From an uncultured Vicinamibacterales bacterium (GTDB lineage Bacteria > Acidobacteriota > Vicinamibacteria > Vicinamibacterales > UBA8438), in the NCBI GenBank assembly GCA_958295905.1, contig OY282382.1, positions 3,942,910 to 4,006,909 of the forward strand: DNA of 64,000 bases, in the 5' to 3' direction. Below the pieces are notes generated by a model. That model was not told where the DNA came from and made no database searches. It worked only from the letters and a program-made list of their open reading frames with translations. This document shows positions 5,320 through 63,934 of the stretch, one piece after another. Position numbers and translations under genes: made by a program. Numbering within the stretch: the first letter of the stretch is position 1; each line of letters begins with the position of its first letter.

Positions 5320-5550
5320 ACTGTTCCTCGTTCCGTGAGAGTCGGCCCCGACAGCCTGCCGCAGAAGGCCCCGGCGCCTTCGACGGGCGGTCTCGGCGCG
5401 ATGCGGGGTTCCGCCGCAGGCTGCCCAGCCCTTCCATCGGGCCGCGTCTCCGGCCGAACGCCGCCGGGCGGTTGTCCCGGTCGCGCCCGATCCGGCGACG
5501 CCAAATGATCGATCGTAGCAGAAGGGGCCGAACCGCGCATCAGTCAGGAT

Positions 5551-5665
5551 CCAGGACCATCCCACGCTCCGCCACCGCCGTGCGCAGGCCGAATCGCGGC
5601 GGGTCCTGGGGCTCCGGACATGCGGAATCGTGGGTCTGACACCGCGCCGGCCGGTCGGCAAGACA
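5551..5665 (-). repeat. Partial copy of the REP/MITE-like element (family of 18528, 27758, 63685)
   Basis: ccaggaccatcccacgctccgccaccgc...ccggtcggcaagac matches the reverse complement of the 27.8-kb copies from one terminus through the 36-bp core. Confidence 0.7.
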
Positions 5666-5792
5666 CGGCCGGCCGGGTCCCGGGCCGGCGCCGGCCGCCG
5701 CCGCAGACCGGGAGTCCGCGCCGTGGAACGGTGCGGACCCCGGCAGGGCCGGGCGGCGATCGGAGCCGCCGGCGACGACGTCCGGGCCGGCG

Positions 5793-15765: not shown

Positions 15766-17487
15766 CTAGCCGGGCTCGGGCGTTCTTCGCCCGCCGGAGC
15801 CCCCACCGGCCGCCGGCGGCGCCGGTCTGGTTGCGACGGGGGGTTCCGCCACGGGCCGCGCCGCCGCGTCCCCGACGAGCGACGCCAGCCGTTCGAGCCC
15901 GGCCGCGGCGCCGCCACCCAGATGCAGCCGGACCACGCGGCGCCCGCGCGCGGCCAGCACCTCATGGTCGCCGAGCGCCTGCGCCATCTTCACCGTCCCG
16001 AACGTGCACGAGCGGCCCGGAACCGCCAGATCGCGGGCCGTGTCGTCGGTCGTGAGGACCACGAACACCCCGGTCGCCGGCCCCCCCTTGAACACTTGGC
16101 CGGTCGAATGGAGATAGCGCGGTCCGAACCCGACGCTCGTCGCCACGCGCCGGGCGTCGCGGACCCGGCGGCGGACGCGCTGCAGCGCCTCTGCGTTGTC
16201 CCCGCTCCGATCCAGGTACGCCAACAGGGCCAGATAGTCGCCGGGGCCCGCGCTCGCCACGTGCGCCGACACGAGCCGTTCGAGCGTGGCCGACCCGCCG
16301 GCCGCCGGCCGCAGCCGCGCGGCGGCACCGGCGTCGGCGAACAGGGCGATCCCGTCCGACTCGGCCACCGGCCGCTCGTCCGGCGGTCCCCCGGCCGCCT
16401 CCCAGGCCGCGGTCAGCGACCGCGCCGCGACCTTGGCGGCCTCCACGTCGGGCTGGTCGAAGGGGTTCACCCCCAGCACCGCCCCGCAGACGGCGGTGGC
16501 GAGCTCCCACCGGAAGAACTCGGCGGCCAGCGCCTCCCGGCCCGGCACCGGCAGGGTGACGACGGGGTGGCCGGCGGCGGCGAGGACGGCGAGGGCGGCA
16601 TCCTGCTCGAGATCGGGATCGTCCTCGACCCGCACGTGGACGAACAGACGGTCGCTACCGTACGCCGAGGGCGGACCAAGCTCCTCGTCGACGACGGGAA
16701 TCAGGCCCCGCCCCGCCTTGCCCGTCGACTCCGCCAGCAACTGCTCCAGCCACGCGCCGAGGGCGCGAACCGAGGGCGACAGCACCAGGGTGATCTTGTC
16801 CCGGCCGGCGGCGGCGGCGAGACCGAGCAGGAGCCCCAGCCGCGCCCCCGGGTTCCGGCCGGCGGGCACGGCGGGGCCGCAGAGCTCGGCCATCCTTCCC
16901 GCGGGCGCCAGGAACGCCGGCACGTCCACCCCGCAGGCCGCGGCGGGGACGAGGCCGAAGTTCGACAGCACCGAGAACCGCCCCCCCACGTCGGGGCGGC
17001 CGCTCCACACCTGCCGGAAGCCTTCCGTCCCGGCCATCGCCTCGAGGGCCGAGCCCGGATCGGTGATCGCCACGAAATGCGCGCCGGCCCGATCGGGTCC
17101 GACCGCCTGCCGCATGCGATCGAGGAAGTAGTCGGCGAGTAGCGCCGGCTCGAGGGTCGTTCCGGACTTGCTCGACACGATGCACAGGGTGCGGGGCAGG
17201 TCGAGCCGGGATGCGGTCCGCGCGATCTGCGCCGGGTCGGTCGAATCGAGCACGTGCAGCGCCGGCACCCGCGGCGCGAGAATCCGGCCGATGACCTCGG
17301 CGCCGAGACTGGATCCTCCCATGCCGAGGAGGAGGACGTCGGTGAACCCGCCCGCCCGCACCCCTTCGGCGAAGCGAGACAGCGCACCGGCCGGCAGGGC
17401 GGCGCCGGCCAGATCCAGCCACCCCAGCCAGCGCGCCTCGTCGCCCCCGGTCCAGACACCGGCATCCTTCCGCCACACGCGGCCCAC
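15766..17487 (-). CDS. pgi: Glucose-6-phosphate isomerase (Tal-Pgi-type PGI domain)
   Basis: SIS motifs LLLGMGGSSLG and IVSSKSGTTLEP; N-terminus RVWRKDAGVWTG...WLGWLD. The start is uncertain because the frame stays open upstream of the GTG at 17487. Confidence 0.8.
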   Translation of the reverse strand: MGRVWRKDAGVWTGGDEARWLGWLDLAGAALPAGALSRFAEGVRAGGFTDVLLLGMGGSSLGAEVIGRILAPRVPALHVLDSTDPAQIARTASRLDLPRTLCIVSSKSGTTLEPALLADYFLDRMRQAVGPDRAGAHFVAITDPGSALEAMAGTEGFRQVWSGRPDVGGRFSVLSNFGLVPAAACGVDVPAFLAPAGRMAELCGPAVPAGRNPGARLGLLLGLAAAAGRDKITLVLSPSVRALGAWLEQLLAESTGKAGRGLIPVVDEELGPPSAYGSDRLFVHVRVEDDPDLEQDAALAVLAAAGHPVVTLPVPGREALAAEFFRWELATAVCGAVLGVNPFDQPDVEAAKVAARSLTAAWEAAGGPPDERPVAESDGIALFADAGAAARLRPAAGGSATLERLVSAHVASAGPGDYLALLAYLDRSGDNAEALQRVRRRVRDARRVATSVGFGPRYLHSTGQVFKGGPATGVFVVLTTDDTARDLAVPGRSCTFGTVKMAQALGDHEVLAARGRRVVRLHLGGGAAAGLERLASLVGDAAARPVAEPPVATRPAPPAAGGGSGGRRTPEPG

Positions 17488-18189: not shown

Positions 18190-18527
18190 CCCCCTGCCAC
18201 CGAGGCGGTCCCCCCCCGCCGAACCCGCCGGACGATACGCCGGACACCGGGACCGGCAGTCAGAACGTTGACCGATATCGATGCGTCAAGCTCGACAAGG
18301 ACCGCCGTGGACTCCCTTGCCGGCGCACGGTTGCGCGGCACGGTGGTTCCGTCAGCGTCCCCCGGAAAATCGTCGCCTGCGGCTCCGATGGCCGCCCAAC
18401 CAACCCTCCAGGAGTCCGCGCCGTTCTACGGGCACTCCAAGTGCGCGCCAACCGCGGAACACGGTGATGAATCGTACTACAGAAGCGCCGCGGGAAGAGC
18501 CCGCATCAGCCGGCGGCCCAGGAGCAT

Positions 18528-18764
18528 CCCACGCTGCCTGCGCGTGACGGCCCGCCCCCGATTCGAGGGGTCGCCACCGTCTTGCCGACCGGCCGGCGCC
18601 GCGTGCTCCCAACTACGGTTGAACACAATCACTTGCTTCAAGTCGCCACCGTCTTGCCGACCGGCCGGCGCCGCGTGAGACCCACGATTCCGCACGTCCG
18701 GAGCCCCAGGACCCACCACGATTCCGCCTGCGCACGGCGGTGGCGGAGCGTGGGATGGTCCTGG
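18528..18764 (+). repeat. REP/MITE-like element copy carrying an internal 36-bp duplication around a 36-bp insert
   Basis: Termini ccaggagcatcccacgct ... agcgtgggatggtcctgg are inverted. DR1 is 18569-18604, the insert is 18605-18640 and DR2 is 18641-18676. Confidence 0.85.
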
Positions 18765-24252: not shown

Positions 24253-24359
24253 GTCCTACAAAATGCCTGACACCGGCTGGCCGTGTCAACGACGGGACTG
24301 ACCGGCGCCCGGACCTCGGCGCGTCAGCGCGGGAGTAAAGGTTCGCGCGCGCGGCCGTG

Positions 24360-24980
24360 TCAACGACGGGGACTGACCGGCGCCCGGACCTGCTGACCCC
24401 CGGGCTCGATCCGCTCGACGGGTACCGCGTGTCCGTCCCGCAGCACGTGTCGGGTCCCGCCGGCGAGAACGCTCCAGCCTCCGTTCCACCGCTCGATGCG
24501 GGGGCGATGCCCGGGAAACGGATGGGACCGGCGGAACGCGGTGTCGCCCGACACGAAGAAGAGCAGACCGGGGGCCGTGTCGCCCCGGCAACCGGGACTC
24601 CGGAACACCAGGGCGTCCCGGTTGCCGTCGCCGTCGAAGTCGCGCTGGTCCGGGAGATCGAGACACATGTCGTCCGTCTCTCCGAGCACCACGTGCTCGC
24701 GGTTTCCGATGCGGGCGACGAGGATGTCGAAGAATCGGGCACCCTTCACGACGTGGTAGACGATGCCGGAGGGTGATTCCGGGGCATCCCCGCGCCCGCC
24801 GGCGACATCGTTCGTCCCCGGCGCGGCCAACGACCGCGTCTCGTCCGTCTCGGGGGCGGGAGCAGCATCGGAAGCCGGCGGCGGCGCGGGATGGCCGGCG
24901 GGGACCGGCCCGGAATCGATCCGGCAGCCGGCGAGCGCCGCCCCGAGGACGAGGACCGTTCCCAGCTCCATGACGCGCAT
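24360..24980 (-). CDS. Hypothetical lipoprotein with an FG-GAP-like DxDGDG motif
   Basis: Signal peptide/lipobox LVLGAALAGC, and DQRDFDGDGNRDALVF. Confidence 0.5.
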   Translation of the reverse strand: MRVMELGTVLVLGAALAGCRIDSGPVPAGHPAPPPASDAAPAPETDETRSLAAPGTNDVAGGRGDAPESPSGIVYHVVKGARFFDILVARIGNREHVVLGETDDMCLDLPDQRDFDGDGNRDALVFRSPGCRGDTAPGLLFFVSGDTAFRRSHPFPGHRPRIERWNGGWSVLAGGTRHVLRDGHAVPVERIEPGGQQVRAPVSPRR

Positions 24981-27678: not shown

Positions 27679-27757
27679 GTCACCCTCCTCGTCCACCCGC
27701 GTGGTTACGATGATCGCCTACTTCGGCGGCCGGACGCAAGCGTCCCCAGGGACCGCG

Positions 27758-29659: not shown

Positions 29660-30036
29660 GCGTGCGTATCCCCAATCGAAGGCTTGCGTAGAGCCGTGGC
29701 TCGTCCGCCGAGAAGGACGAGCCGGGTTCCGATGGCCGCCGTCACCGGTGCGCATGCCGCACCCGCGGGCCGCCGGCCGATCATCGCGCCAAGAGCTCGG
29801 TGAAGCCGCCGGAACCCGTCGAGACCGGCGCCGACCCGTGCCGCCGACCGGTCACTCCGCGCCAGAAGTCCTGTCGCGGTAACGCACCTGCATCCCATGG
29901 CGCCGGCCGCGCGCCGCCCGCCGGCCGGTCACCGCGCCGCGACCGCGGCGGAGCCGCCAGAAGCCCGTCGAGACAGGCACCCGGCCGCGCGCCGCCCGCC
30001 GACCGGTCACTGCGCCGCGACCGCGGCGGAGCGCTG

Positions 30037-39329: not shown

Positions 39330-39470
39330 GCCTCGCCGCCGTGCGGGCCGTTCCGTAACCGACAGAGGTTAATGCGGAATGGTCCGCACGGTCCCGGACG
39401 GCCGGCGCATCGCCAACGGGCCAACCGCGTCCGTCGACCTCAAGCCTTTATCGGTGTGACCCCGCCCGTC

Positions 39471-42400
39471 GCTCAACGAAGGCCGGGGCGTGAACCCCGG
39501 CGACACGCGAGCTCCTGCTGGTGCGCCAGGCGCCGTTGGAACGCTCAACGAAGGCCGGGGCGTGAACCCCGGCGACACGCGGTGTGCTTGGTGGCGCCGG
39601 TGAGTCCGACGCTCGCTCAACGAAGGCCGGGGCGTGAACCCCGAACGACACGCGTGGGCGGAGGCGACGACCGCCCGGCTCCGCGGGGACGCTCAACGAA
39701 GGCCGGGGCGTGAACCCCGGCGACACTGGTCGGCACCGGCGGTCCCGGCGCCGGCGTATCGCGCTCAACGAAGGCCGGGGCGTGAACCCCGGCGACACTG
39801 GGGCCGCGACGGCGACCTGGGGCTCGAACCTGGTCGCTCAACGAAGGCCGGGGCGTGAACCCCGGCGACACGCGCAGGGCGGCCTGCACCGACATCCCGC
39901 TCCCCGACCGCTCAACGAAGGCCGGGGCGTGAACCCCGGCGACACGCGCAGGGCGGCGCACGCGCACGGCAGTCCCGGCTCGCTCAACGAAGGCCGGGGC
40001 GTGAACCCCGGCGACACCCGAGCCGCCCACGACCGAATTGTGCGCCTCCGTCCGCGCTCAACGAAGGCCGGGGCGTGAACCCCGGCGACACGTGGCCGGC
40101 GGCGCGGTCGAGTGGGGCAGCCGCCTGATCGCTCAACGAAGGCCGGGGCGTGAACCCCGGCGACACTGGCCGGCGGCGCGTGCGGTCCGGAGATTAGTCC
40201 GCGCTCAACGAAGGCCGGGGCGTGAACCCCGGCGACACCACCGCCGCCAGGGCGGTGCTGATGTCGGTCCCCCGCGCTCAACGAAGGCCGGGGCGTGAAC
40301 CCCGGCGACACCCGCGGGCACCGGCGCGAGGGTGCATCTCCTGACGCACCGCTCAACGAAGGCCGGGGCGTGAACCCCGGCGACACCGGACGGCGTGGGT
40401 GAGTCCGCAGGCGAGGCAGTACGCTCAACGAAGGCCGGGGCGTGAACCCCGGCGACACTGTCGGGCGCCGGGGACGGCTCCCTCAGGTCCATCCGCCGCT
40501 CAACGAAGGCCGGGGCGTGAACCCCGGCGACACTACCCGGCCGGGCGGCGCGGCGGTGGCGAGCAACGACGCTCAACGAAGGCCGGGGCGTGAACCCCGG
40601 CGACACGTCGGCTTCTACGGCCTCCGGGGGGCGGCACTCCCTCGCTCAACGAAGGCCGGGGCGTGAACCCCGGCGACACACGCGGAGCTCTACGGCATCC
40701 CCATCAGGATCGGACACGCTCAACGAAGGCCGGGGCGTGAACCCCGGCGACACTTGCGGCGGGCGCTCCGGGCGGTCCCGTCGGGATGACGCTCAACGAA
40801 GGCCGGGGCGTGAACCCCGGCGACACGACGAACGGCGCCGAGTTCCGCAGCGCCGCCGGGGCCCCGCTCAACGAAGGCCGGGGCGTGAACCCCGGCGACA
40901 CGCGGTGCGGCACGACTCCGCGAGTGTCTGTGTCACCGCTCAACGAAGGCCGGGGCGTGAACCCCGGCGACACGGCCTGGATCCGGCGATACAGCTCCGG
41001 ACTGACGTACGCTCAACGAAGGCCGGGGCGTGAACCCCGGCGACACCAGAAAAGACGATGGGCCCCTCCGGCCGGAAGTGCGTCGCTCAACGAAGGCCGG
41101 GGCGTGAACCCCGGCGACACGCCGGACAAATCGAACTGCGTCTGCAGCGCGGTAACGCTCAACGAAGGCCGGGGCGTGAACCCCGGCGACACCTCATCGC
41201 CTTGTCCAGCGCCGGGTTGCCGCTCGGGTCCGCTCAACGAAGGCCGGGGCGTGAACCCCGGCGACACCCGGCACGCTCAGGCGCGCGCCGACATCGCCGT
41301 GGTCGCTCAACGAAGGCCGGGGCGTGAACCCCGGCGACACAGCACGACGGCGAGCACCTCATACATCGGTCCACGCGCTCAACGAAGGCCGGGGCGTGAA
41401 CCCCGGCGACACACATACGGCGTTCGGGCCCGTGCCGCCCGTCCGCGCGCGCTCAACGAAGGCCGGGGCGTGAACCCCGGCGACACCCCCAGGAGGGCTC
41501 GGCGCGCGAGACGGGGCCGACGGCGGTCGCTCAACGAAGGCCGGGGCGTGAACCCCGGCGACACGCGAGCGCCCATGATTTCCCGACGCCGGCCAGGCCC
41601 GCTCAACGAAGGCCGGGGCGTGAACCCCGGCGACACTCAGCGATTGGCTAACCCACGCCCCGGCGACCCGCTTCGCTCAACGAAGGCCGGGGCGTGAACC
41701 CCGGCGACACGCACACATCGTCACCGCGGTCAGACGCGGCGGGGGGCGCTCAACGAAGGCCGGGGCGTGAACCCCGGCGACACTCGTTCCACGACCCGTA
41801 CCCGATGCCGACACCGGTCGCTCAACGAAGGCCGGGGCGTGAACCCCGGCGACACGTCCGGCGGAGTCGGCGCATGCCGAAGGTCCCGGCGCGCTCAACG
41901 AAGGCCGGGGCGTGAACCCCGGCGACACTCCCGGGGTTGCTGCGCTCGGTCAGCACGCTCACGGCCGACGCTCAACGAAGGCCGGGGCGTGAACCCCGGC
42001 GACACCATCCACCGGCCGACCCTTGTCGGTCCCCGCCATCGGCGCTCAACGAAGGCCGGGGCGTGAACCCCGGCGACACGGCACCTTCCGCTTCGAGGCC
42101 GCGGGGAGTGCCGACGCTCAACGAAGGCCGGGGCGTGAACCCCGGCGACACTCCCGCCGGACTCGGCGAGAGCCTGCTTGGACCAGCCCGCTCAACGAAG
42201 GCCGGGGCGTGAACCCCGGCGACACCGGCGCGCCGGCCCCGGCCCGGTCCCGCGCTTCTTGAGCGCTCAACGAAGGCCGGGGCGTGAACCCCGGCGACAC
42301 CGGCCGAGAGCGGGACGCCCATGGGTATGCCTCCTCGCTCAACGAAGGCCGGGGCGTGAACCCCGGCGACACTTCGCCCAGGACCGCGCCCGCAGCGACT

Positions 42401-45400
42401 TCGACCGGTGCGCTCAACGAAGGCCGGGGCGTGAACCCCGGCGACACGAACCCGCGCCCGGAGGACCTTCCAACGCTTGGTGTTCGCTCAACGAAGGCCG
42501 GGGCGTGAACCCCGGCGACACGCACAGGGCGGATGAGCCACGACCGGACTGCCGCCCGCCGCTCAACGAAGGCCGGGGCGTGAACCCCGGCGACACGTCG
42601 TCACCGACGGCAACGCTTCGCCGTCGAGCGTCGCTCAACGAAGGCCGGGGCGTGAACCCCGGCGACACCTCCCGAGCACGATCACAAGGAAGCGTTCTGC
42701 CTGATGTGCGCTCAACGAAGGCCGGGGCGTGAACCCCGGCGACACGCAGGCGTGGACGCGGATCAGGTCGGCGCTCCCACACGCTCAACGAAGGCCGGGG
42801 CGTGAACCCCGGCGACACCAGCAACCGGAGTGTGTCACTGCCACTGCCGGTAGCCGTTCGCTCAACGAAGGCCGGGGCGTGAACCCCGGCGACACCTTGG
42901 CCCCTGATGATGTCGCTGACGCCGCTGACTTCCGCTCAACGAAGGCCGGGGCGTGAACCCCGGCGACACCCACGAGGCGGCCGGCAGGAGCACGTCCGGG
43001 TCGCCCGCCGCTCAACGAAGGCCGGGGCGTGAACCCCGGCGACACACCTTGAAATCGACTATACCGGCCAACTTGTCGCCGCTCAACGAAGGCCGGGGCG
43101 TGAACCCCGGCGACACGGCGGCGCTCGGTGACCAGGTGGGCGGGAGCCTGACCGGCGCTCAACGAAGGCCGGGGCGTGAACCCCGGCGACACTTGGCGCT
43201 CGAACCGGGCCGCGGGCAGGTCGCGGACCGCTCAACGAAGGCCGGGGCGTGAACCCCGGCGACACACTCCACGATGGCGACAGCGCGGGCGCTGACCGGC
43301 TACTCCCGCTCAACGAAGGCCGGGGCGTGAACCCCGGCGACACTGGTAAAGATAGCTCCCCGCACCGGTGCCACCTACTCCCGCTCAACGAAGGCCGGGG
43401 CGTGAACCCCGGCGACACACAAACTCCAGACTGGAACCCATCACAGGAACCATGACCGCTCAACGAAGGCCGGGGCGTGAACCCCGGCGACACCCGACCA
43501 TGCCGGCCGAACCAGCGAACCTCCCCCCGCTCAACGAAGGCCGGGGCGTGAACCCCGGCGACACTTCTTGAGCTCGCCGGTGATCTGGTTCAAGCCGCCC
43601 GCTCAACGAAGGCCGGGGCGTGAACCCCGGCGACACCTCGCGGAGCAGGATGGCGCGGCGCATCGGCGGATGCGCTCAACGAAGGCCGGGGCGTGAACCC
43701 CGGCGACACCTCGCGGAGCAGGATGGCGCGGCGCATCGGCGGATGCGCTCAACGAAGGCCGGGGCGTGAACCCCGGCGACACGCCACCGCGAGATACCAG
43801 CAGACGCGGTGTTGGGTGCGCTCAACGAAGGCCGGGGCGTGAACCCCGGCGACACCACGAGAAGCGCCGCGGCCAGCGCCTCGCGCCGCGTCGCTCAACG
43901 AAGGCCGGGGCGTGAACCCCGGCGACACCACACCTGCGCCAGGTCGCCCTTGTGCGCCTCGTACGCTCAACGAAGGCCGGGGCGTGAACCCCGGCGACAC
44001 CTAGCATCCTGGGATTGGCTACTCACCGTATTCAGTTCGCTCAACGAAGGCCGGGGCGTGAACCCCGGCGACACTTCTTCTGCTTCTCGGCGCGCCACAC
44101 CTCGATCCGCGCTCAACGAAGGCCGGGGCGTGAACCCCGGCGACACCCGACCCAAACCTCGGCCCGGCCAGTATCTGGCCACGCTCAACGAAGGCCGGGG
44201 CGTGAACCCCGGCGACACCCTCGGCTTGCAGCCGCACATCGTGGCGCTGTCTGCCGCTCAACGAAGGCCGGGGCGTGAACCCCGGCGACACCGGCGCGCC
44301 GGGCTCGAGCCCGGCGCGCCAGGTGCTCGCTCAACGAAGGCCGGGGCGTGAACCCCGGCGACACATGCGTCCACCGGCGGACGTTCCCCCGCGCGGCCGC
44401 CGCTCAACGAAGGCCGGGGCGTGAACCCCGGCGACACTCGCCGATCCTGACCAGCCCGCACCGGACGACCTCGGGCGGCGCTCAACGAAGGCCGGGGCGT
44501 GAACCCCGGCGACACTCGCCGAACTCCACGGGGGGCGGGTCGCCCCGCCGCGCTCAACGAAGGCCGGGGCGTGAACCCCGGCGACACTCCAGGACCAAAA
44601 GTCATGATCGAGAAACGGCACGGCGCTCAACGAAGGCCGGGGCGTGAACCCCGGCGACACGCGGCGGTGCCCAGCGCTTGAGGCACGGCGTCCGACGCTC
44701 AACGAAGGCCGGGGCGTGAACCCCGGCGACACCGTCACCAGGCATCCGGGGGCCGACAGTCTCATCGACGCTCAACGAAGGCCGGGGCGTGAACCCCGGC
44801 GACACGCGAGCGCCCATGATTTCCCGACGCCGGCCAAGCCCGCTCAACGAAGGCCGGGGCGTGAACCCCGGCGACACCACACCGGCAAGGCCGCAGCCGA
44901 CGTTCGCCTACACCGCTCAACGAAGGCCGGGGCGTGAACCCCGGCGACACTCGCGCGCCTGCCCGGGGAGACCCGTCACATCGTCGCTCAACGAAGGCCG
45001 GGGCGTGAACCCCGGCGACACGCCTGCGTTCCGGGGCGCTGACGCGCCTAGAGGGCCACCGCTCAACGAAGGCCGGGGCGTGAACCCCGGCGACACGTCG
45101 ATGGCCCCGCTGAACCGGGACGATTTCGACGCCGCTCAACGAAGGCCGGGGCGTGAACCCCGGCGACACCCTGATTGGCCCTTGCTGACTGACTGATAAG
45201 TGAATGCGCTCAACGAAGGCCGGGGCGTGAACCCCGGCGACACAAGAGCGCCGAAGCCGGGGGGACGGAACTCCATCGTCGCTCAACGAAGGCCGGGGCG
45301 TGAACCCCGGCGACACTCGACCCGGAGATCGACGGCCGCGAGGCCGACGGGCGGGCCGCTCAACGAAGGCCGGGGCGTGAACCCCGGCGACACCCGCGGG

Positions 45401-48400
45401 GGTCGCCCCGATCTGGCCGCTCGTGTTCCACGCTCAACGAAGGCCGGGGCGTGAACCCCGGCGACACTCGCCGACTTCCCCGTTGCTGTTCCGGGTCAAC
45501 CGGATCGCTCAACGAAGGCCGGGGCGTGAACCCCGGCGACACGTGCTCGACATGGGGCGCGCCGCCTTGGATGCTTCGGTCGCTCAACGAAGGCCGGGGC
45601 GTGAACCCCGGCGACACTCGGTGGATTTAGCTGCGCCGGTGAGGCTCCGGCTCGCTCAACGAAGGCCGGGGCGTGAACCCCGGCGACACCCGCGACACGG
45701 CGCCGGCGGCGGTGTCGTCGAACGGCGCTCAACGAAGGCCGGGGCGTGAACCCCGGCGACACCCCCTTGGATGATGATCTTATACCGCCCGCCCACGAGC
45801 GCTCAACGAAGGCCGGGGCGTGAACCCCGGCGACACGGACATGCTCCGGCGCGGCTTCCTCGCCGGAGATCGCTCAACGAAGGCCGGGGCGTGAACCCCG
45901 GCGACACCCCCGCCTACCCGAGCACGAACCCGCACCGTGACCCGCTCAACGAAGGCCGGGGCGTGAACCCCGGCGACACGTGGGTCTACGGCGCGTCGAT
46001 TACCGCGGGCACGGGCGCTCAACGAAGGCCGGGGCGTGAACCCCGGCGACACGCCCGTCGTCTCGCGGCACAACCACGCGCCGCCGCCCTCCGCTCAACG
46101 AAGGCCGGGGCGTGAACCCCGGCGACACACCCGACGCCGGGTGGCTGGCCGGGCAGGCCGAGCGGGCCGCTCAACGAAGGCCGGGGCGTGAACCCCGGCG
46201 ACACGAGGCTGGGCGTAGGGTCCCGACGCATGGCCGGATACTCGCTCAACGAAGGCCGGGGCGTGAACCCCGGCGACACCCCATTCCGCCAGCATGCAGG
46301 GGCCGGGCCACAACAACCGCGCTCAACGAAGGCCGGGGCGTGAACCCCGGCGACACCCGCCGCGCAGGGCGGCGCACGCGCACGGCAGTCCGGGCTCGCT
46401 CAACGAAGGCCGGGGCGTGAACCCCGGCGACACCCCATTCCGCCAGCATGCAGGGGCCGGGCCACAACAACCGCGCTCAACGAAGGCCGGGGCGTGAACC
46501 CCGGCGACACATACTCGAAGAGCTGCACAAGAACGGTGAGTTTGCCCGCTCAACGAAGGCCGGGGCGTGAACCCCGGCGACACGGGCCGCCCGGTTCCTC
46601 GGGCTCGGCGGCGGCGGCTGGTACGCTCAACGAAGGCCGGGGCGTGAACCCCGGCGACACCCTCCCCGGCGGGCACGGGGTGTAGCCGCGGCCCTTGCCC
46701 GCTCAACGAAGGCCGGGGCGTGAACCCCGGCGACACGGCGTTGACGCCCAGGGTCCGCTGGCCGCCGACGTGCGCTCAACGAAGGCCGGGGCGTGAACCC
46801 CGGCGACACCGCCTCGGGCACGAGGCGCGGGTCGAAGCCACGCTCCGCTCAACGAAGGCCGGGGCGTGAACCCCGGCGACACCGACACGTAGTACTCCAC
46901 GTCGGCCGACTGCTCAGCCGCTCAACGAAGGCCGGGGCGTGAACCCCGGCGACACCCGCAGCGGGCCGCCGCGGACATCCCACGACGCGACCGCGCTCAA
47001 CGAAGGCCGGGGCGTGAACCCCGGCGACACGCCCGGCGACCGCGGGTACTTCCGGGGGGGCGGGGCCGCTCAACGAAGGCCGGGGCGTGAACCCCGGCGA
47101 CACGCATCCTGTTCGGCGGGGGCGCCAAGCGGCCGGCGCGCTCAACGAAGGCCGGGGCGTGAACCCCGGCGACACTCGGAGTGGCGGCGTTCCTGCGCCT
47201 GCATCCAATCGTCGCTCAACGAAGGCCGGGGCGTGAACCCCGGCGACACGCGCCCACGCCGGGTCGTTGCCGTCCGTCATCACGTGCGCTCAACGAAGGC
47301 CGGGGCGTGAACCCCGGCGACACCCACACCGACGACAGCACGCCGACCGCCCAACCGCACGCTCAACGAAGGCCGGGGCGTGAACCCCGGCGACACGCTG
47401 ATACGGCGCTTGGTGGCGCGCGTGGATGAGCTCGCTCAACGAAGGCCGGGGCGTGAACCCCGGCGACACTCGGAGCTCGGCGACACGACCGGCGCGGTGG
47501 ATGAGGCCGCTCAACGAAGGCCGGGGCGTGAACCCCGGCGACACCTCCTGCCTGCTGTCCAGACCCAACGCCCTGTCGAGCGCTCAACGAAGGCCGGGGC
47601 GTGAACCCCGGCGACACACGCGCCACACGGGGTCCGGGGCCGATGGGTGGTGGATGCGCTCAACGAAGGCCGGGGCGTGAACCCCGGCGACACGCCCGGG
47701 CCCCCGGCCCCATCCCCAAGGGCGCCCTCCGCGCTCAACGAAGGCCGGGGCGTGAACCCCGGCGACACACGCGACGATACAGATGATCGCCTCGATGTCC
47801 ATCGATCGCTCAACGAAGGCCGGGGCGTGAACCCCGGCTTCTTCGTGACCGCGGACTCGGCCTCGACGTAGACCGCTCAACGAAGGCCGGGGCGTGAACC
47901 CCGGCGACACCCCTTCACGACCGAGCGAGCGGAGCGAGCGAGGGAGCGCTCAACGAAGGCCGGGGCGTGAACCCCGGCGACACACGACCGCCACGGATCG
48001 CGCGCCGTCGGCCGATCCGCTCAACGAAGGCCGGGGCGTGAACCCCGGCGACACGCGCGGCACGCCCGGCGGCGCCTACCTGGCGTCGCGCGGGCGCTCA
48101 ACGAAGGCCGGGGCGTGAACCCCGGCGACACGCCGTTGTGGGCGATGTAATAGCGGTTGTCGTCCGGGCGCTCAACGAAGGCCGGGGCGTGAACCCCGGC
48201 GACACTCCCGCGGGCCGGGGTGCCGTCGGCACTGGACCGCCCCGCTCAACGAAGGCCGGGGCGTGAACCCCGGCGACACACGCTCCGCATGTCATATGGT
48301 TACGCTCCGCGTGTCCGCTCAACGAAGGCCGGGGCGTGAACCCCGGCGACACTCGTCGTCGGCCGGGGTCTCGTCGGCGTCGTGATCCGCTCAACGAAGG

Positions 48401-51400
48401 CCGGGGCGTGAACCCCGGCGACACTGGAGCACCCACAGCAGCCGCCGGCTGACCTTGCCCATCGCTCAACGAAGGCCGGGGCGTGAACCCCGGCGACACT
48501 TCACAGAAAGCTCGGCGTCAGTTCTTGGCACGTCAACGCTCAACGAAGGCCGGGGCGTGAACCCCGGCGACACTTCTCGAGCCGCCCGCGCCACGCCTTG
48601 AGCTCGGCGTTCGCTCAACGAAGGCCGGGGCGTGAACCCCGGCGACACTCCGCGGACCTCGAACGGCCGCGAGAGCGAGTGGGTCGCTCAACGAAGGCCG
48701 GGGCGTGAACCCCGGCGACACGGGGCCGCCCGGCGACATGGAGTGGCTGACAGCGCACGCTCAACGAAGGCCGGGGCGTGAACCCCGGCGACACCATCAC
48801 GAGGTCGGCGGTCTCCCCGCGGCCGTCGCGCGCTCAACGAAGGCCGGGGCGTGAACCCCGGCGACACGCGATACAGCGGAGGAATCTACCACGGAGGCAA
48901 CCTCGCTCAACGAAGGCCGGGGCGTGAACCCCGGCGACACTGCGACCTCTCCGTTGCTCAACCTCGTCAGCCGGATCGCTCAACGAAGGCCGGGGCGTGA
49001 ACCCCGGCGACACCCGCCGCGATGCTCTCGCTGCAGCGGCTAGGGCTCACGCACGCTCAACGAAGGCCGGGGCGTGAACCCCGGCGACACGCTCTGGGCG
49101 GACGGGCCCAGCGCGCCGCCAAGCGCGCGCTCAACGAAGGCCGGGGCGTGAACCCCGGCGACACTCCAAGCCGTTGCGGACGCCGCCGCGGCGGCCGGCG
49201 GGGAACGCTCAACGAAGGCCGGGGCGTGAACCCCGGCGACACCCTCCAGAGCGAATCCGACCGCCACCGGGTCGTAGACCGCTCAACGAAGGCCGGGGCG
49301 TGAACCCCGGCGACACGGCTTGAAGTGCATCTTGGCCTGAGCCTTGGCTGTCGCTCAACGAAGGCCGGGGCGTGAACCCCGGCGACACAACGCCGCCCTC
49401 GCGTGCGCGGCGTTCCTCGCGGCCGCTCAACGAAGGCCGGGGCGTGAACCCCGGCGACACCTGTTGCAACTTCCCACGACTGCCCGCCCAGCCCGCCGCG
49501 CTCAACGAAGGCCGGGGCGTGAACCCCGGCGACACCTGTCTCCCACCTTCGGCCCGCGCCCCGCGAGCGAACGCTCAACGAAGGCCGGGGCGTGAACCCC
49601 GGCGACACACGCCGGCCACGAGCATGTAGTGCGTCGCGCCCATCGCTCAACGAAGGCCGGGGCGTGAACCCCGGCGACACTGGTGGTGTGCGGCCCTGAC
49701 GGCCGCCGAGGACGATGGCGCTCAACGAAGGCCGGGGCGTGAACCCCGGCGACACGTGCGAGGCGGCGTCATTCAGCGCGGCGAAGGAAGCCGCTCAACG
49801 AAGGCCGGGGCGTGAACCCCGGCGACACTCGAGCCACTCGGCCTCGAGCAGGCCCGAGTCTATCGCGCTCAACGAAGGCCGGGGCGTGAACCCCGGCGAC
49901 ACCCTCCAGCACCGCCGCCCCGACATCCCCCGACCGACCCGCTCAACGAAGGCCGGGGCGTGAACCCCGGCGACACTCGGGCCTCCGCAGTTGCGCGGGT
50001 GCTGGCTAGTCCGCGTCGCTCAACGAAGGCCGGGGCGTGAACCCCGGCGACACCGCACATGGATGTGGCTCGTCGCCACATTTTCAACATCGCTCAACGA
50101 AGGCCGGGGCGTGAACCCCGGCGACACGCCGACGGCGTGAAGGGGGCCGATCTCAAGGCCGCCCCCGCTCAACGAAGGCCGGGGCGTGAACCCCGGCGAC
50201 ACGCGGAGCAGCGCGGATGCAATGTCACCGGATCTGCCCCCGCTCAACGAAGGCCGGGGCGTGAACCCCGGCGACACCACCAAGCCGCCCGCCAACCGGG
50301 ACACGTCGTCCGCCGTCGCTCAACGAAGGCCGGGGCGTGAACCCCGGCGACACTGCCGCAGTCGCCGAACGTCAACGGCCTCATCGTGCGCTCAACGAAG
50401 GCCGGGGCGTGAACCCCGGCGACACCTGCCCCGGTGCCGCGGGCGCGCCCGCCACCCGCGTCGCTCAACGAAGGCCGGGGCGTGAACCCCGGCGACACGC
50501 ACCCGTATACCCATAGTCCCCATAGGCCCGGAACGCTCAACGAAGGCCGGGGCGTGAACCCCGGCGACACCCGCGCGGCTCATCCGCCCGCGCGAACCGT
50601 CAGCCGCTCAACGAAGGCCGGGGCGTGAACCCCGGCGACACCACGAGCCATCCGGCGGCGATCGTCTTGCCCGACTCCGCTCAACGAAGGCCGGGGCGTG
50701 AACCCCGGCGACACACGAAATCACGCAGGATTTGCCGGCGTTCTTCGTATCGCTCAACGAAGGCCGGGGCGTGAACCCCGGCGACACCCGGCGTATCCGC
50801 GCCGCCGTCGATTTCGGCGCGGACGGCGCTCAACGAAGGCCGGGGCGTGAACCCCGGCGACACCTCCTGGGTGGATGGCCCTGATTGGCCCTTGCTGACT
50901 GCGCTCAACGAAGGCCGGGGCGTGAACCCCGGCGACACCGCCGCGCAGGGCGGCGCACGCGCACGGCAGTTCGGGCTCGCTCAACGAAGGCCGGGGCGTG
51001 AACCCCGGCGACACTCCCGGAGCGGCTACAAGACCATCGTCGATCTCGACGGGCGCTCAACGAAGGCCGGGGCGTGAACCCCGGCGACACCCCGGCGCGC
51101 CGATGGCCCGCGCTTCATCGAGCTCGTCCGCTCAACGAAGGCCGGGGCGTGAACCCCGGCGACACCGCTGCCGCGATCCGGTGTGGGGGGCCGTCAAGTC
51201 CGCTCAACGAAGGCCGGGGCGTGAACCCCGGCGACACTCAGAGCGTCCGCCGCGCCGGAGCGGCTTAGTGCACGCTCAACGAAGGCCGGGGCGTGAACCC
51301 CGGCGACACTGGGCGTGGGCGGCGTGGCCGCCGGGATGCATCTCGCTCAACGAAGGCCGGGGCGTGAACCCCGGCGACACCCGCTCAGTGACTCTGTGGC

Positions 51401-54099
51401 GAACACGGCATGACTGATCGCTCAACGAAGGCCGGGGCGTGAACCCCGGCGACACCGGCAAACCGATCGGCCAGCTAGCCGCCGATTCCCGTCACCGCTC
51501 AACGAAGGCCGGGGCGTGAACCCCGGCGACACGCGCAGGGCGGCGCACGCGCACGGCAGTCCTCGTTCGCTCAACGAAGGCCGGGGCGTGAACCCCGGCG
51601 ACACCCGGGGTCGGATGTCCCGGACGGGCCGATGGTGTGGGCGCTCAACGAAGGCCGGGGCGTGAACCCCGGCGACACACGTCGAGGCCGCGGTCGATCA
51701 GGTCGGCGACGAGCGCCCGCTCAACGAAGGCCGGGGCGTGAACCCCGGCGACACTGCCCAGCGCCGCGTAGTTCAGCGGCCGAGTCACTGCGCTCAACGA
51801 AGGCCGGGGCGTGAACCCCGGCGACACGCCGGCGCTGGCTGAGCTCGATACCGCGCTCGGTGCGCTCAACGAAGGCCGGGGCGTGAACCCCGGCGACACC
51901 CGCCCGGACCCCTGCCGCGGCGCGATGCTCTCACCAGCGCTCAACGAAGGCCGGGGCGTGAACCCCGGCGACACTCGCCCGGACGGCGGTGCTCAAGGCC
52001 GCCCGGGCGCGCTCAACGAAGGCCGGGGCGTGAACCCCGGCGACACCAGGCGGCGCGTCGATCCCGGAGCCCACCGTCTGGAGCGCTCAACGAAGGCCGG
52101 GGCGTGAACCCCGGCGACACCGGTGCGAAGCCGGATGCGCCGGCCGCCACCTGGACGCGCTCAACGAAGGCCGGGGCGTGAACCCCGGCGACACTTGAGG
52201 GCGTGGCGAATCTCCTGCCCGTTGAGCGGGGCGCTCAACGAAGGCCGGGGCGTGAACCCCGGCGACACGCCAACACGGCGGCGCAGCGGGCCGCCGTCCA
52301 AGCCGCTCAACGAAGGCCGGGGCGTGAACCCCGGCGACACTCCAGCCGGCGGGGCGGGCCCGGAGGTCGGCGTCGTGCGCTCAACGAAGGCCGGGGCGTG
52401 AACCCCGGCGACACAGTTCGACCTCGCGGATGAAGTCGCCGAGCAGCTGCGCTCAACGAAGGCCGGGGCGTGAACCCCGGCGACACGTCCTGGTTGCCGA
52501 CGAGCGTGCCCTCGAACGCGCTCGCTCAACGAAGGCCGGGGCGTGAACCCCGGCGACACGCCAGTGCCGCGGGTGCATCGCAGCGCGGCGGAGAGGCGCT
52601 CAACGAAGGCCGGGGCGTGAACCCCGGCGACACTCGATCTTGTGGGTCCAGGTCCTCACGCTCACGCGCGCTCAACGAAGGCCGGGGCGTGAACCCCGGC
52701 GACACTCGAGTCGGCCGCGCAGGTGACCCTCTGGCCCGGGCGCTCAACGAAGGCCGGGGCGTGAACCCCGGCGACACGACCTGCTGGGCGCGATCCAGCT
52801 CTGGCTAGTCCGCTCGCTCAACGAAGGCCGGGGCGTGAACCCCGGCGACACGCGGGCATCTGGGGGGCGCACTAGATGGTACCGAGGCTCGCTCAACGAA
52901 GGCCGGGGCGTGAACCCCGGCGACACCCGCGGCGCGTGCTGTGCACGGTCTGCACCGATCGCGCTCAACGAAGGCCGGGGCGTGAACCCCGGCGACACCT
53001 GGAGCCGGTGCAATGCCGGCGGCCGATGCGGGAGCGCTCAACGAAGGCCGGGGCGTGAACCCCGGCGACACCGCCGGCGGCGCGTTGAGCACGTCGACCC
53101 GCCGCAGCGCTCAACGAAGGCCGGGGCGTGAACCCCGGCGACACAGGCGCTCGAAGCCGCGGCGGAAGCCCGCGACGACGCTCAACGAAGGCCGGGGCGT
53201 GAACCCCGGCGACACATCCGCCATGCGGCTGTTGGCGGCGTTCATGTGGCGCGCTCAACGAAGGCCGGGGCGTGAACCCCGGCGACACTCTATCGTATGG
53301 GTCCAGGTCCTCACGCTCACGTGCGCTCAACGAAGGCCGGGGCGTGAACCCCGGCGACACCCCACGCGCGGCACCGCGTGCAGTAGACACCCTCCTCCAG
53401 CGCTCAACGAAGGCCGGGGCGTGAACCCCGGCGACACCGTACCGCAGGGCGGTGCCGGTGACGCGGCGCGACTCGCTCAACGAAGGCCGGGGCGTGAACC
53501 CCGGCGACACACCCGACGGTTCGGCCAGGCGGCGGTCACGCATCCATCGCTCAACGAAGGCCGGGGCGTGAACCCCGGCGACACGCGCCCGACAGCCCGG
53601 CAGTGCCGAGCTGGATGACCTCGCTCAACGAAGGCCGGGGCGTGAACCCCGGCGACACTGGCGTGTCTCGCACTGTCCGGCATGGAGGCGCCTCCCGCGC
53701 TCAACGAAGGCCGGGGCGTGAACCCCGGCGACACGTGAAGGGGACGCCGACGCGGACGGCGCCGATGGAACGCTCAACGAAGGCCGGGGCGTGAACCCCG
53801 GCGACACTGGTCCGGCGTCATCGGGCCGCCCGCCGCGTGGCCCGCTCAACGAAGGCCGGGGCGTGAACCCCGGCGACACGTCCCGCATCGCCACCAGAAG
53901 CCGAGCGTCCCGTCCGCTCAACGAAGGCCGGGGCGTGAACCCCGGCGACACCCGCGTCCGCGTTCGAGGTCTGCGCCTGCATCGCGGCCGCTCAACGAAG
54001 GCCGGGGCGTGAACCCCGGCGACACTCGACACGCCGGCCGGGACGGCGTTCCGCGCCCGGGTCGCTCAACGAAGGCCGGGGCGTGAACCCCGGCGACAC
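39471..54099 (-). CRISPR. CRISPR array with a 36-bp repeat and about 200 spacers of 35-41 bp
   Basis: The plus-strand repeat is gctcaacgaaggccggggcgtgaaccccggcgacac. The transcribed (minus) form is GTGTCGCCGGGGTTCACGCCCCGGCCTTCGTTGAGC, a 7-bp stem plus an 11-nt 3' tail. The period is 72-77 bp. A degenerate repeat at the 39.6-kb end and the leader and cas2 at the 54.1-kb end set the orientation. The count is estimated from length divided by period. Confidence 0.97.
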
Positions 54100-55605: not shown

Positions 55606-56210
55606 CCGAATACGGCGTCGGCCATGTACCGCTCTACCTTACGGGGCCTGCTCGTGAGCTCGGGCAAACAGTGGTGCAGTAGCTGGCATTCCGCACACCG
55701 GCGGTCGTTGGGCGCGTCCGGCAGATCGGCCGTCAGCATCTGCTTCCGGATCTCGTGGATGACGGTCTGCACGTCGTGGCGCAACTCCACCGTGAAATCG
55801 ACCAGAACGCGGCGCCGCGGTCCGCCGTACCACACATGGCCGTGCGGCACGGCGGCGTCGAACATCTCCTCGAGACACAGCGCCTGCGCGCACAGCTGGA
55901 GATCCGCAGCCATTCCATGCCGTACACCCGCCTTGTATTCGACGGGATGGACCGCTCCATCGTCTACTTCGACTGCATCGGCGCGGCCCGACAGTCCCAG
56001 TCTCTCGGACCAGAGCGGGATGGAGCGAAGTATCTGTCGCCCCCGTTCACGGCGATGCTGGCCGCTGTCGACCCGGCGATGCGCGCGCATGCCCTTCACG
56101 GTGTGGACGTTGTCGCTCCAGACGCCGTCGCAATGGATCAGGGCGCATTGGCGCGGACAGTACGCGAAGTGCTCAATGGCGGAGATCGGAACGACGGGCT
56201 CGGTGTTCAC
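55593..56210 (-). CDS. cas4: CRISPR-associated exonuclease Cas4
   Basis: FAYCPRQ N-terminal Cys, the GRADAVE...PVEYK nuclease motif and C-terminal CAECQLLHHC. It overlaps cas1 by 13 nt. Confidence 0.9.
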   Translation of the reverse strand: MNTEPVVPISAIEHFAYCPRQCALIHCDGVWSDNVHTVKGMRAHRRVDSGQHRRERGRQILRSIPLWSERLGLSGRADAVEVDDGAVHPVEYKAGVRHGMAADLQLCAQALCLEEMFDAAVPHGHVWYGGPRRRVLVDFTVELRHDVQTVIHEIRKQMLTADLPDAPNDRRCAECQLLHHCLPELTSRPRKVERYMADAVFGCAT

Positions 56211-61396: not shown

Positions 61397-62592
61397 CAGT
61401 CGGCAAGCTCCGGCCACGTCGAGCGGATTGCGGCCTTGAGGTTCTCCTTGGGCTTGAGCACCTTCGGGGGCTGACCCCAGCCGTCGAGCGGTACACACGC
61501 CTCTCTGGCGTGGTCCACCGCCGACCGCAGCAGCGCAAGGGTAGCCGTGGCGTCGCCGAGGTCGCGAGCCTCGTCGCCGTCGCTTCCGAGCCACGTCACG
61601 TTTCTCGATGCCGGCCGCAATTCAGCACCGGAGCGCAACGCGAACCCCCGTCCGAAAGCAAGCTGGTGGGCATGCAGTCCGAGCGCCACCAGCAGGGCTC
61701 GCGCCGCCGCGTCCGCGTTCGGCTGATCTCCACCGAGACTGACTCGACGGAGCTGCGCGAAAGAGACGGTCGCGCGCTGTGTCACCCACGCGAACGAGAC
61801 CGCCGCCGCGGTTGCGTCGCTACCCATGAACGGCACCTGGCCGTGGCCCATCTCGGAGAGCTTGTCCTTCTTGCCGCCGGCAACGCTCACCTCTTTCCCG
61901 ACCTCCCATTTCGTCCGGTCGTCCGGATTGGAAGTCACGACCTCGTCGGTGTTCAGGTTCAGGGCATCGCCCTTCAGTCCGAGGACGCGGGTCTCCGTCG
62001 AAGCGGGCTGCCAGCCGATGATCTCCGACACCCAGGCGCGAGCGTGCTTGCTGTTGTGCCGCTTCTTGCCCAGATGAGACTGCCAGAACCCGTACAGCAG
62101 CGCTTGCGGAAACCACGCCATCAGGGGGCCGCACGCCTGCGCGGTGGCGCCGAAGATGGCGCTTCCGAGCTTCGTCTTGATGAAGTCCTGGCCGTCCATC
62201 GTGGAGTCCCGGAGGTACGCATCGCCGTTGCGATGCGGGAACTGCAGGCTCGACAGGCTTGTCGGCAGATGCGCCGGCAGATGAGGCAAACCGGACAGGT
62301 CGAGTACGAGCTCGGGTACGGACGTCGATTCGCGGTGTCGGCGCAGCGCGTCTTCCAGCCGGTTGGCCTGCGACGGCACGTTGTCGATCACGATGACCGG
62401 CGTGGGCTCCGCCGCGTCCGGCGCGCGCCAGCGCCGATCCTGTTGATAGACACCACCTTCGTAGACCGCCGGTTTGACCGGTCCTCCGGGACCGGCCAGC
62501 GGTACGAGCTCCGTGTCGACCCGAATGCCGTCGTCGAACGAGTCGTCGGCGCAGCCGTTCAGCAACTCCGTGAAATCGATCATGTCGGCCAT
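61396..62592 (-). CDS. csb1: Csb1 (Cas7u, GSU0053 family)
   Basis: First gene of the operon. The ATG at 62592 lies 6 nt after GGAGGT. Size and position fit a type I-U Cas7, but family recognition from the sequence is weaker than for csb2. Confidence 0.65.
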   Translation of the reverse strand: MADMIDFTELLNGCADDSFDDGIRVDTELVPLAGPGGPVKPAVYEGGVYQQDRRWRAPDAAEPTPVIVIDNVPSQANRLEDALRRHRESTSVPELVLDLSGLPHLPAHLPTSLSSLQFPHRNGDAYLRDSTMDGQDFIKTKLGSAIFGATAQACGPLMAWFPQALLYGFWQSHLGKKRHNSKHARAWVSEIIGWQPASTETRVLGLKGDALNLNTDEVVTSNPDDRTKWEVGKEVSVAGGKKDKLSEMGHGQVPFMGSDATAAAVSFAWVTQRATVSFAQLRRVSLGGDQPNADAAARALLVALGLHAHQLAFGRGFALRSGAELRPASRNVTWLGSDGDEARDLGDATATLALLRSAVDHAREACVPLDGWGQPPKVLKPKENLKAAIRSTWPELAD

Positions 62593-62913: not shown

Positions 62914-63432
<519 letters not shown>

Positions 63433-63684
63433 CGCTCACACCTCCAAAATGACCCGACGCCCGGGTTCGAGCTGCGGGTATCCCGCCTGATCCGGTCTCG
63501 GTGCGACGCCGGGTTCCACCGCAGGCCGCCGGCCGGGTCGGACGGGCCCCATTCTCACACGGCTGTCACGGGTGGGCCCGACCAACGGCGTCGGCCCATG
63601 CCGCGCGGCGGGCCGGGGTCCCCTGCGCGTGGGAGTCGCAGGCGGACTCGCCGACGCCGCCGGCTCCCGGCCCGGCGCCGGACA

Positions 63685-63934
63685 CAGGACCATCCCACGC
63701 TCCGCCACCGCCGTGCGCAGGCCGCATCGTGGCGGATCGTGGGGCTCCGGACGGGCGGAACCGTGGGTCCCACGCGGCGCCGACCGGTCGGCAAGACAGT
63801 GGCGACCCCGCCGCCGACGAATACCGGCGCATGCTCGCCGCCGCGGCACGCGGCGCCGGCCGGTCGGCAAGACGGCGGCGACCCCTCGAATCGGGGCGGG
63901 CCCGTCACGCGCCGTCAGCGTGGGATGCCCCTGG
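63685..63934 (-). repeat. REP/MITE-like element copy (reverse orientation) with a duplicated 36-bp core around a 37-40-bp insert
   Basis: caggaccatcccacgct...agcgtgggatgcccctgg. Core copies lie at 63771-63806 and 63847-63882. Confidence 0.8.

Follow-up and report, generated by a model that had tools for sequence, protein, structure and literature searches.

A one-spacer mini-array inside a MITE-like element of an uncultured Vicinamibacterales bacterium and its probable origin by ectopic CRISPR spacer integration

Integration of spacers outside a CRISPR array, creating new arrays, was reported for the type I-E system of Escherichia coli by Nivala, Shipman and Church (Nat Microbiol 2018; as described in 10.1101/148544, PMC6698737 and PMC7054753). 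In the account given in 10.1101/148544, these events took place in the laboratory with over-expressed Cas1-Cas2, and the natural cases are described as circumstantial. Mini-CRISPR arrays and solitary repeat units on viruses and mobile elements have been reviewed (PMC8616872); their repeats are identical or very similar to the repeat associated with the host cas genes, and most of their spacers have identifiable targets. Here we describe a mini-array at positions 63771-63882 of a 64,000-nt stretch of chromosomal DNA (71% GC; contig OY282382.1 of assembly GCA_958295905.1, here called the window, meaning the whole stretch) from an uncultured Vicinamibacterales bacterium. Among named sequences, the closest homologues of its RpiB belong to Acidobacteriota metagenome-assembled genomes (72-77% identity). 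The mini-array agrees with those reviewed in having a single spacer with a repeat on each side and in being carried by a mobile element. Unlike them, its repeat does not resemble that of the host type I-G system, its carrier is a non-coding 174-nt miniature inverted-repeat transposable element (MITE), and no targets were found.

The mini-array contains two copies of a 36-nt core, GTCGCCACCGTCTTGCCGACCGGCCGGCGCCGCGTG, which has six matches in the window at up to three mismatches and none in 100 shuffles. Alignment of the copies showed that the core is the mid-portion of an element of about 174 nt with terminal inverted repeats, present in the window as copies A, B, C1, C2 and D (Table 1). The two cores of copy D, at 63.8 kb, differ from each other at core positions 7, 9 and 24. 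GGG precedes both of them on the minus strand, so the boundary slides by 3 nt and core and insert can be read as 36+40, 37+39, 38+38 or 39+37. The original prediction, made from the letters of the window, had described these two cores with three differences around a 37-40-nt insert with a sliding boundary, and the sequence is as described. It had further stated that this insert shares nothing with the 36-nt insert of copy B at 18.6 kb, which was borne out by sequence comparison: the two are unrelated. The 40-nt insert has no second occurrence within the window, not even a partial one.

Polarity was established from sister strains. Exact-protein look-ups detected two contigs of one HiFi metagenome assembly (ENA ERZ19489113), s158.ptg000166l (locus L058) and s6886.ptg007551l (loci L059 and L060), that are 98-99% identical to the window; two contigs of a related species (L070 and L071) are about 88% identical. 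In all, about 125 kb of sequence from the species was compared, and about 130 kb of related-species loci were scanned for the element. At the 18.6-kb locus a single core is present in L058 and in L059; the window is longer there by a clean 72 nt, made up of a 36-nt insert and a 36-nt core. In copy B the event is thus recent: only the window has it, and no difference separates the two cores. The insert is low in GC, 44% in a genome of 71%, which suggests an origin in foreign DNA and is the only such hint among the inserts. Single nucleotide polymorphisms (SNPs) in the adjacent PGI-rpiB genes, read against related-species outgroups, gave no shared derived sites for L058 and L059, versus one and two for the other pairings. 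With no SNP support for a clade of L058 and L059, a single gain of the insert in the lineage of the window is therefore the most parsimonious.

The D locus gave a different age. In L060 it holds two tandem elements, D1 and D2. D1 has the insert of the window's copy D with one substitution (L060 9324-9363), and its cores differ as those of the window do, with GCC versus ACT at positions 7-9; D2 has two identical cores, GTCGCCACCGTCTTGCCGTCCGTCCGCCGCCGCGTG, around a different insert of 38 nt. The insert of D is common to the window and L060, and the cores around it have diverged, which places the 63.8-kb event before the split of the strains. The window's copy D tracks D1 of L060 into the downstream core and follows the right arm of D2 from the 3' end of the core; its downstream core is probably a recombinant of the downstream cores of D1 and D2, and crossing-over between cores would have removed about 260 nt, including the D2 spacer. 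The only empty state found at this locus is the element-free site of L070 and L071, and no single-core allele of D was found. The same core has been occupied in at least three independent events, namely B (36 nt), D/D1 (37-40 nt) and D2 in L060 (38 nt).

These alleles bear on three further claims of the original prediction. The insertions at 63.8 kb and 18.6 kb are independent, as it had held, their inserts being unrelated and a third event with its own insert being present in L060. The 63.8-kb event is also the older one, as had been suggested from its mismatches, its insert being found in L060 with one substitution, against the window-private event at 18.6 kb with identical cores. The proposal that the core is a preferred target is supported with an amendment: with three events it is a hot spot, but it is not the sole target (psi2 and psi3, below).

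A reading in the opposite direction, in which two cores are the original state or belong to the element as a module, copies with one core arose by deletion between direct repeats and no insertion took place, appears extremely improbable to us and is largely refuted. Element copies do recombine, as seen from the varying number of tandem C copies, the D1/D2 recombinant in copy D and concerted evolution in L059. Against this, every two-core copy has its own unique insert, the insert between the identical cores of B is low in GC, and sites outside the element show insert and duplication versus clean single-copy alleles; moreover, the two-core state would itself still require an insertion to arise. 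A single core is the ground state in C1 and C2 and at the 18.6-kb locus of L058 and L059, where the allele is exactly 72 nt shorter. Neither outcome that would have counted against the original prediction was seen: the inserts are not conserved element sequence, and L070 and L071 lack the whole element at the D locus.

An exact 36-bp duplication together with a unique insert of 35-40 nt that is missing from the empty allele is the signature of Cas1-Cas2 integration, and we consider it probable that the mini-array was made by a CRISPR integrase acting outside its array. Our confidence in the integration chemistry alone is higher than in the complete explanation. According to this mechanism, a Cas1-Cas2 complex would have made staggered cuts at both borders of the 36-bp segment in the middle of the MITE, a prespacer of about 37-40 nt would have been joined to the cut ends, and gap repair would have left the segment duplicated on either side of the insert. 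All insert lengths (35-40 nt) fall inside the range of the spacers in the main array (34-41 nt, mode 36), and the duplication is close to the repeat length (36 bp versus the 37-nt canonical repeat in the same genome). Adaptation by the type I-U/I-G system in Geobacter yields mainly 36-bp spacers (PMC6547450).

The same signature was detected at other sites. We searched the window and all compared loci for repeat-spacer-repeat structures (direct repeats of 26-48 nt at a spacing of 25-50 nt) and obtained the sites psi2 to psi5, all of them from this species and all intergenic (Table 1). Clean empty alleles, with one copy of the target and no insert, are available for B, psi2 and psi3. The site psi4 has no orthologue for comparison and is thus a candidate without an empty-site control; its repeat, judged by eye, could form a short hairpin. 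The candidate psi5, perhaps older, is common to the window and L059, and a 379-nt deletion in L058 (window 23958-24336) removes the first copy, leaving no clean empty allele. All three strains have at least one private event. B, D2, psi2 and psi3 have a duplication of exactly 36 bp, and D has one of 36-39 bp; the inserts are 35, 36, 36, 38, 38, about 39 and 37-40 nt long, with no common terminal sequence.

Other hits of the search were rejected: window 24930-25034 corresponds to the N-termini of two paralogous small proteins, and L051 10541 and L052/L053 at about 1547 are ordinary tandem repeats. Separately, when the inserts of B, D1, D2, psi2 and psi3 are placed in the orientation that best fits the I-G repeat, four of these five start with C, and only 33% of the main-array spacers do so.

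A process unrelated to CRISPR, such as slippage during replication, tandem duplication, the joining of ends with filler DNA at a staggered break or the footprint of an unknown transposon, might be considered in these intergenic regions, which are rich in tandem repeats with periods of 58-181 nt. However, a tandem duplication would repeat the whole unit, and here the insert is absent from the empty allele. The 36-bp duplication recurs in at least four unambiguous events with inserts of 35-40 nt, sizes that are characteristic of CRISPR integration, and the inserts have no common ends and hence are not transposon footprints. Target duplications are 14-15 bp for casposases and 2-14 bp for insertion sequence (IS) elements, and we know of no transposase that makes 36-bp duplications around inserts of 35-40 nt. 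We regard an origin of this kind as very unlikely.

Table 1. Features of the window and of the sister loci discussed in the text (positions in the window unless a locus is named)
Feature	Position	Strand	Description
Element copy D	63684..63924	-	Starts CCAGGGGCATCCCACGCT and ends AGCGTGGGATGGTCCTGT on the - strand; carries the one-spacer mini-array
Upstream core, copy D	63847-63882	-	1 mismatch to the 18.6-kb core; GTCGCCGCCGTCTTGCCGACCGGCCGGCGCCGCGTG on the - strand
Spacer-like insert, copy D	63807-63846	-	40 nt; CCGCGGCGGCGAGCATGCGCCGGTATTCGTCGGCGGCGGG on the - strand
Downstream core, copy D	63771-63806	-	2 mismatches to the 18.6-kb core; GTCGCCACTGTCTTGCCGACCGGTCGGCGCCGCGTG
8-bp direct repeat CGCCGGAC flanking copy D	63925..63932, partner 63676-63683	.	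Resembles a MITE target-site duplication
Element copy B	18518..18764	+	Identical cores around a 36-nt insert, 18606-18641
Cores, copy B	18570-18605, 18642-18677	+	Both exact
Element copies C1 and C2, tandem	27758-27931, 27940-28113	+	One core each; unoccupied state
Cores, copies C1 and C2	27810-27845, 27991-28026	+	Up to 3 mismatches
Element copy A	5550..5674 (about)	-	5'-truncated: degenerate partial core and right arm, left arm missing
psi2	L060 20121-20227		36-nt repeat GTCTCGACGGGCTTCTGGCGGCTCCACCGCGGTCGC twice around a 35-nt insert; private to the sister strain
psi2 empty site in window	29939..29974	-	Single 36-bp copy; reads GTCTCGACGGGCTTC... on the - strand
psi3	L058 12357-12464, downstream of the PGI gene		36-nt repeat CCGTCGCAACCAGACCGGCGGCGCCGGCGGCCGGTG twice around a 36-nt insert; private to L058
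psi3 empty site in window	15804..15839	-	Single 36-bp copy, also single in L059
psi4	L060 7600-7783, past the right end of the window		Three 36-nt repeats CCGACGGCCGSCGCCCGGGGCYGCGCCCTYGGCARG, inserts of 38 and about 39-41 nt
psi5 (candidate, perhaps older)	24279..24391	+	GGCCGTGTCAACGACGGG(G)ACTGACCGGCGCCCGGACCT twice, 38/39 nt with one indel; 36-nt insert
Type I-G array	39470..54099	-	198 repeats of GTGTCGCCGGGGTTCACGCCCCGGCCTTCGTTGAGCG, 37 nt, 197 identical; spacers 34-41 nt, mode 36
Leader	54100-54293	-	194 nt
cas2	54294-54584	-	NCBIfam match; length checked against related cassettes
cas1	54589-55605	-	NCBIfam match; length checked against related cassettes
cas4	55593-56210	-	NCBIfam match; length checked against related cassettes
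csx17/cas8u2-like	56207-57106	-	NCBIfam match; length checked against related cassettes
cas3g	57103-~60027	-	NCBIfam match; length checked against related cassettes
csb2	59993-61396	-	NCBIfam match; length checked against related cassettes
csb1	61396-62592	-	NCBIfam match; length checked against related cassettes

The window contains a complete type I-G system including the adaptation module cas1, cas2 and cas4 (Table 1). Cas1-Cas2(-Cas4) of a type I-G system like that of the window, or of a copy in an ancestor, is the most likely enzyme; we put the chances that it was the I-G module specifically at about even, and the link of the events to the I-G system of the window is circumstantial. In register with the cut, 12 of the first 15 nt of the psi2 site agree with the I-G repeat (P ~1e-4 versus random genomic 36-mers, before correction for about 50 comparisons). 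The junction between left arm and core, GCCCCC..GATTCGAGGG/GTCGCC (the slash marks the junction), loosely resembles the leader-repeat junction of the array, GCCCCC..GATTAGG/GTGTCGCC. The MITE core and the I-G repeat have only GTCGCC in common, 2 nt out of register, plus the leader-like motif GATT..AGGG. As mimicry of a leader, GATT..AGGG.GTCGCC is a real resemblance and a statistically unconvincing one.

Several observations weigh against this assignment. The resemblance of the junctions is weak, with 1.7% of random sites scoring equally, and free local alignment of all five pseudo-repeats to the I-G repeat is not significant (P 0.2-0.45). The duplication is 36 bp wherever it is unambiguous, and the canonical repeat is 37 nt, invariant in 197 of the 198 copies. 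Contig ptg007551l (L059/L060) has no I-G island at this place, yet it has psi2 as a private event as well as D2; either an integrase is encoded at another place in that genome, or the loss of the island was recent. The island is missing from L070 and L071 too; it may therefore have arrived after the D event, or else have been lost in the sister strain. The events are therefore not confined to lineages with the I-G module at the locus (psi2 and D2, the history of D2 being less clear). No protospacer or protospacer-adjacent motif (PAM) was found for any insert in phage, plasmid, IMG/VR or compared sequences. Finally, the comparison covered only about 125 kb of the species, and the genome may have other CRISPR-Cas systems.

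The protospacer searches gave chance-level matches only: none of the seven inserts had a protospacer in phages, plasmids, the compared loci or the main array, and for the two halves of the B insert searched against IMG/VR, one search was empty and the other gave four chance 18-mer matches. We also considered that one end base of the repeat, a 37th nucleotide, derives from the spacer, comparable to the PAM-derived 29th base in E. coli type I-E. This is unlikely: all 197 repeats agree at both end bases, and the base that would then be expected is not seen in the off-target inserts.

A second CRISPR-Cas system elsewhere in the genome, with the 36-nt core as its cognate repeat and the MITE as a mobilised leader-repeat unit, would turn the events at the core into on-target integration. 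It would account for a duplication of exactly 36 bp next to an I-G repeat of 37, for identical borders used three times, for the events in a strain without the I-G island and for a core that is not I-G-like. On the other hand, no long array with the core as repeat was found in the window, the sister loci or IMG/VR, where the core itself was not found, and no array with the core or the other pseudo-repeats in our data exceeds one or two spacers. In the Joint Genome Institute (JGI) metagenomes, neither the two-core pattern nor the conserved right end of the element had a match, the core alone not having been scanned there. A hairpin is not conserved in the core, whose centre drifts freely from copy to copy. 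Furthermore, psi2 and psi3 are unrelated 36-bp sequences that were targeted alike, which a repeat-specific system would not explain. We consider a second system unlikely, and ectopic integration, most likely by an I-G-type integrase, the better account of the sites taken together.

The I-G block (39418-62766, 23.3 kb) is itself an indel polymorphism. It is absent in ptg007551l (L060), L070 and L071, where a 345-aa gene and the cyclophilin gene adjoin. Related I-G cassettes (L065-L069), with a Cas1 93% identical to that of the window, were found beside transposase genes of IS21 or Tn3 in five distinct contexts, and the cassette is evidently mobile. In these cassettes the repeat begins GGGTCGCC, and ATTAG is kept in the leader just upstream, which counts in favour of the I-G assignment. 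In L060, about 90 nt of unique sequence (10656-10760) replaces the CRISPR-Cas block and includes GTGTCGCGGGCACCCGATTGAGAAC, which begins and ends like a repeat of type I-G style and could be a remnant of a lost array; it has no other match in the compared sequences. The trailer end of the array in the window (39470-39689) is decaying, with a last repeat that is 5'-degenerate (AAGAAGCC...) and an apparent spacer of 111 nt (39579-39689) that conceals a mutated repeat.

The two-core structure was rejected as a bona fide CRISPR array: the core is unlike the I-G repeat, the hairpin is not conserved and there is no longer array with the core in the compared sequences. The I-G repeat folds as an 8-bp hairpin (-17.1 kcal/mol); the element cores fold no better than shuffles and lack the 3' end of the I-G repeat. 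Since neither the hairpin nor the 3' handle of the I-G repeat is present in the core, the mini-array probably has no function and is a by-product or neutral scar, at most a potential seed of a new array, and its processing by the Cas6-type subunit of the I-G system seems unlikely.

A regulatory role was weighed in this context. CreTA/CreR mini-arrays (Li and Koonin groups) reportedly keep the nucleotides for Cas6 processing and Cascade loading and have a pseudo-spacer that partly matches a nearby promoter. A CreA/CreR-type mini-array at this locus would guide Cascade to repress a promoter nearby, for example that of the cas operon or of a toxin gene. The position, about 1.1 kb upstream of the first cas gene, and the two repeat-like units around one spacer-sized segment would suit such a role. 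However, the core has neither the hairpin nor the 3' handle, a cyclophilin gene (62914-63429) lies between copy D and csb1 with copy D upstream of it, the same mini-array is present in a strain without the cas operon here, and the insert matches nothing in the window, not even partially. We see hardly any likelihood in this reading and retain that of a scar. A promoter and terminator scan around copy D found nothing.

Closer inspection of the carrier changed its classification. The original prediction had called it a repetitive extragenic palindromic (REP) element; it is instead MITE-like, about 174 nt long, with inverted-repeat ends and flanking direct repeats of 7-8 bp. The left arm begins CCAGGGGCATCCCACGCT, and the right arm terminates in AGCGTGGGATGGTCCTGG, the inverted repeat of this start. 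Each full copy is flanked by direct repeats: GTCCGGCG for D, GACCGCG for C and GCCGGCG for B. L070 and L071 have an intergenic region of 243 nt at the D locus from which the element is absent, and this empty site shows a single related copy of the 8-bp repeat, TGCGGCGCC where the window has GTCCGGCGCC. The copies occupy at least five loci in the 64 kb, all intergenic. In its inverted-repeat ends, its flanking duplication, its multiple copies, its lack of coding capacity and the empty site seen in relatives, the element thus agrees with MITEs. A REP or bacterial interspersed mosaic element (BIME), an imperfect palindrome of 20-40 nt that often occurs in clusters and goes with a REP-associated transposase (RAYT), was rejected: the element is 174 nt long with inverted-repeat ends and direct-repeat flanks, its fold as a whole is no better than shuffles (z = -1.4), Rfam gave no match at gathering or E-value thresholds, and no RAYT was seen. 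The right arm alone folds as a hairpin.

No parent transposon or transposase was identified for the element, BLAST of the element against a plasmid collection gave no match, and it is absent from the related-species loci scanned. The number of tandem C copies is one in L058 and two in both the window and L059. All L059 cores (copies B, C1 and C2; 318-353, 501-536 and 9581-9616) have G changed to A at core position 28, which is G in every copy of the window and of L058; this suggests gene conversion (concerted evolution) among dispersed copies of the element.

The recurrence of events on this element raises the further, tentative possibility that the MITE carries a built-in site for a CRISPR integrase, made of a leader-like flank and a 36-bp pseudo-repeat, with copies that seed mini-arrays or act as decoys absorbing adaptation events, and that ectopic integration is frequent. 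We give this a low probability. On this reading, ectopic events would number about one per 10-15 kb of intergenic-rich sequence; several are private to strains that differ by 1-2%.

Other differences between the strains were seen nearby. An insertion of about 131 nt with 48% GC and CTAGTG...CACTAG ends lies between the ECH and PGI genes (window 15635-15769) and is absent in both sister strains; a further very small mobile element is a possible reading. The window also has four paralogous genes, each of about 350 aa (25415-26467, 26635-27696, 32787-33908 and 38292-39329); the copy at 26635-27696 was scanned and has no Pfam match, and the same is assumed for the others from their 75-90% nucleotide similarity. 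The strains also differ in the copy number of intergenic tandem repeats, whose periods are 58, 61, 96 and 102 nt. In L058, a strain-specific insertion (14907-19880) breaks synteny after the CoA-transferase gene and encodes fragments of DDE_3 and HTH transposases, a protein resembling TniQ and one resembling a UvrD/AAA_19 helicase.

Off-target integration has been proposed as a route by which arrays are born, and the prior evidence comes mainly from E. coli over-expressing Cas1-Cas2. At this locus and its sisters, natural events can be studied in strains of a single uncultured species that occur together, with the occupied and the empty allele both at hand, and with a recurrent hot spot borne by a mobile element. 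With them it becomes testable what the responsible integrase (type I-G or other) recognises outside a leader, at what natural rate ectopic integration takes place and whether mobile repeats seed arrays. If the element does carry a built-in site, CRISPR arrays would have in it a natural mechanism by which to arise and spread; if ectopic integration is frequent, it would be a measurable mutational process and not a rarity. The data also carry a practical warning: where a CRISPR finder reports a two-repeat array in a genome of this kind, the array is likely an integration scar and not a functional locus.

Compared with known elements, the carrier is like MITEs and REP/BIME sequences in being short, non-coding, intergenic and multi-copy with inverted-repeat ends, here along with flanking direct repeats of 7-8 bp and a relative whose site is empty. 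For neither MITEs nor REPs do we know of a segment that is repeatedly duplicated around foreign inserts of 36-40 nt. With CreTA/CreR the mini-array has in common two degenerate repeat-like units, one spacer-like segment and a position near a cas locus, but it has no processing or handle nucleotides and no partial promoter match in the window. Our results support natural ectopic CRISPR spacer integration, recurrent at a MITE-borne site, a phenomenon that had mostly been documented in the laboratory; what is unexpected is the apparent frequency and polymorphism of the events in this species. The neo-CRISPR arrays of E. coli, as far as they are characterised in the accounts cited above, are similar in their spacer-sized insert, a duplication of about repeat length outside the array, an adaptation module in the genome and a weak similarity to the repeat. 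Unlike those, the events described here are natural, polymorphic among co-occurring strains with empty alleles, recurrent on a mobile element and probably of type I-G.

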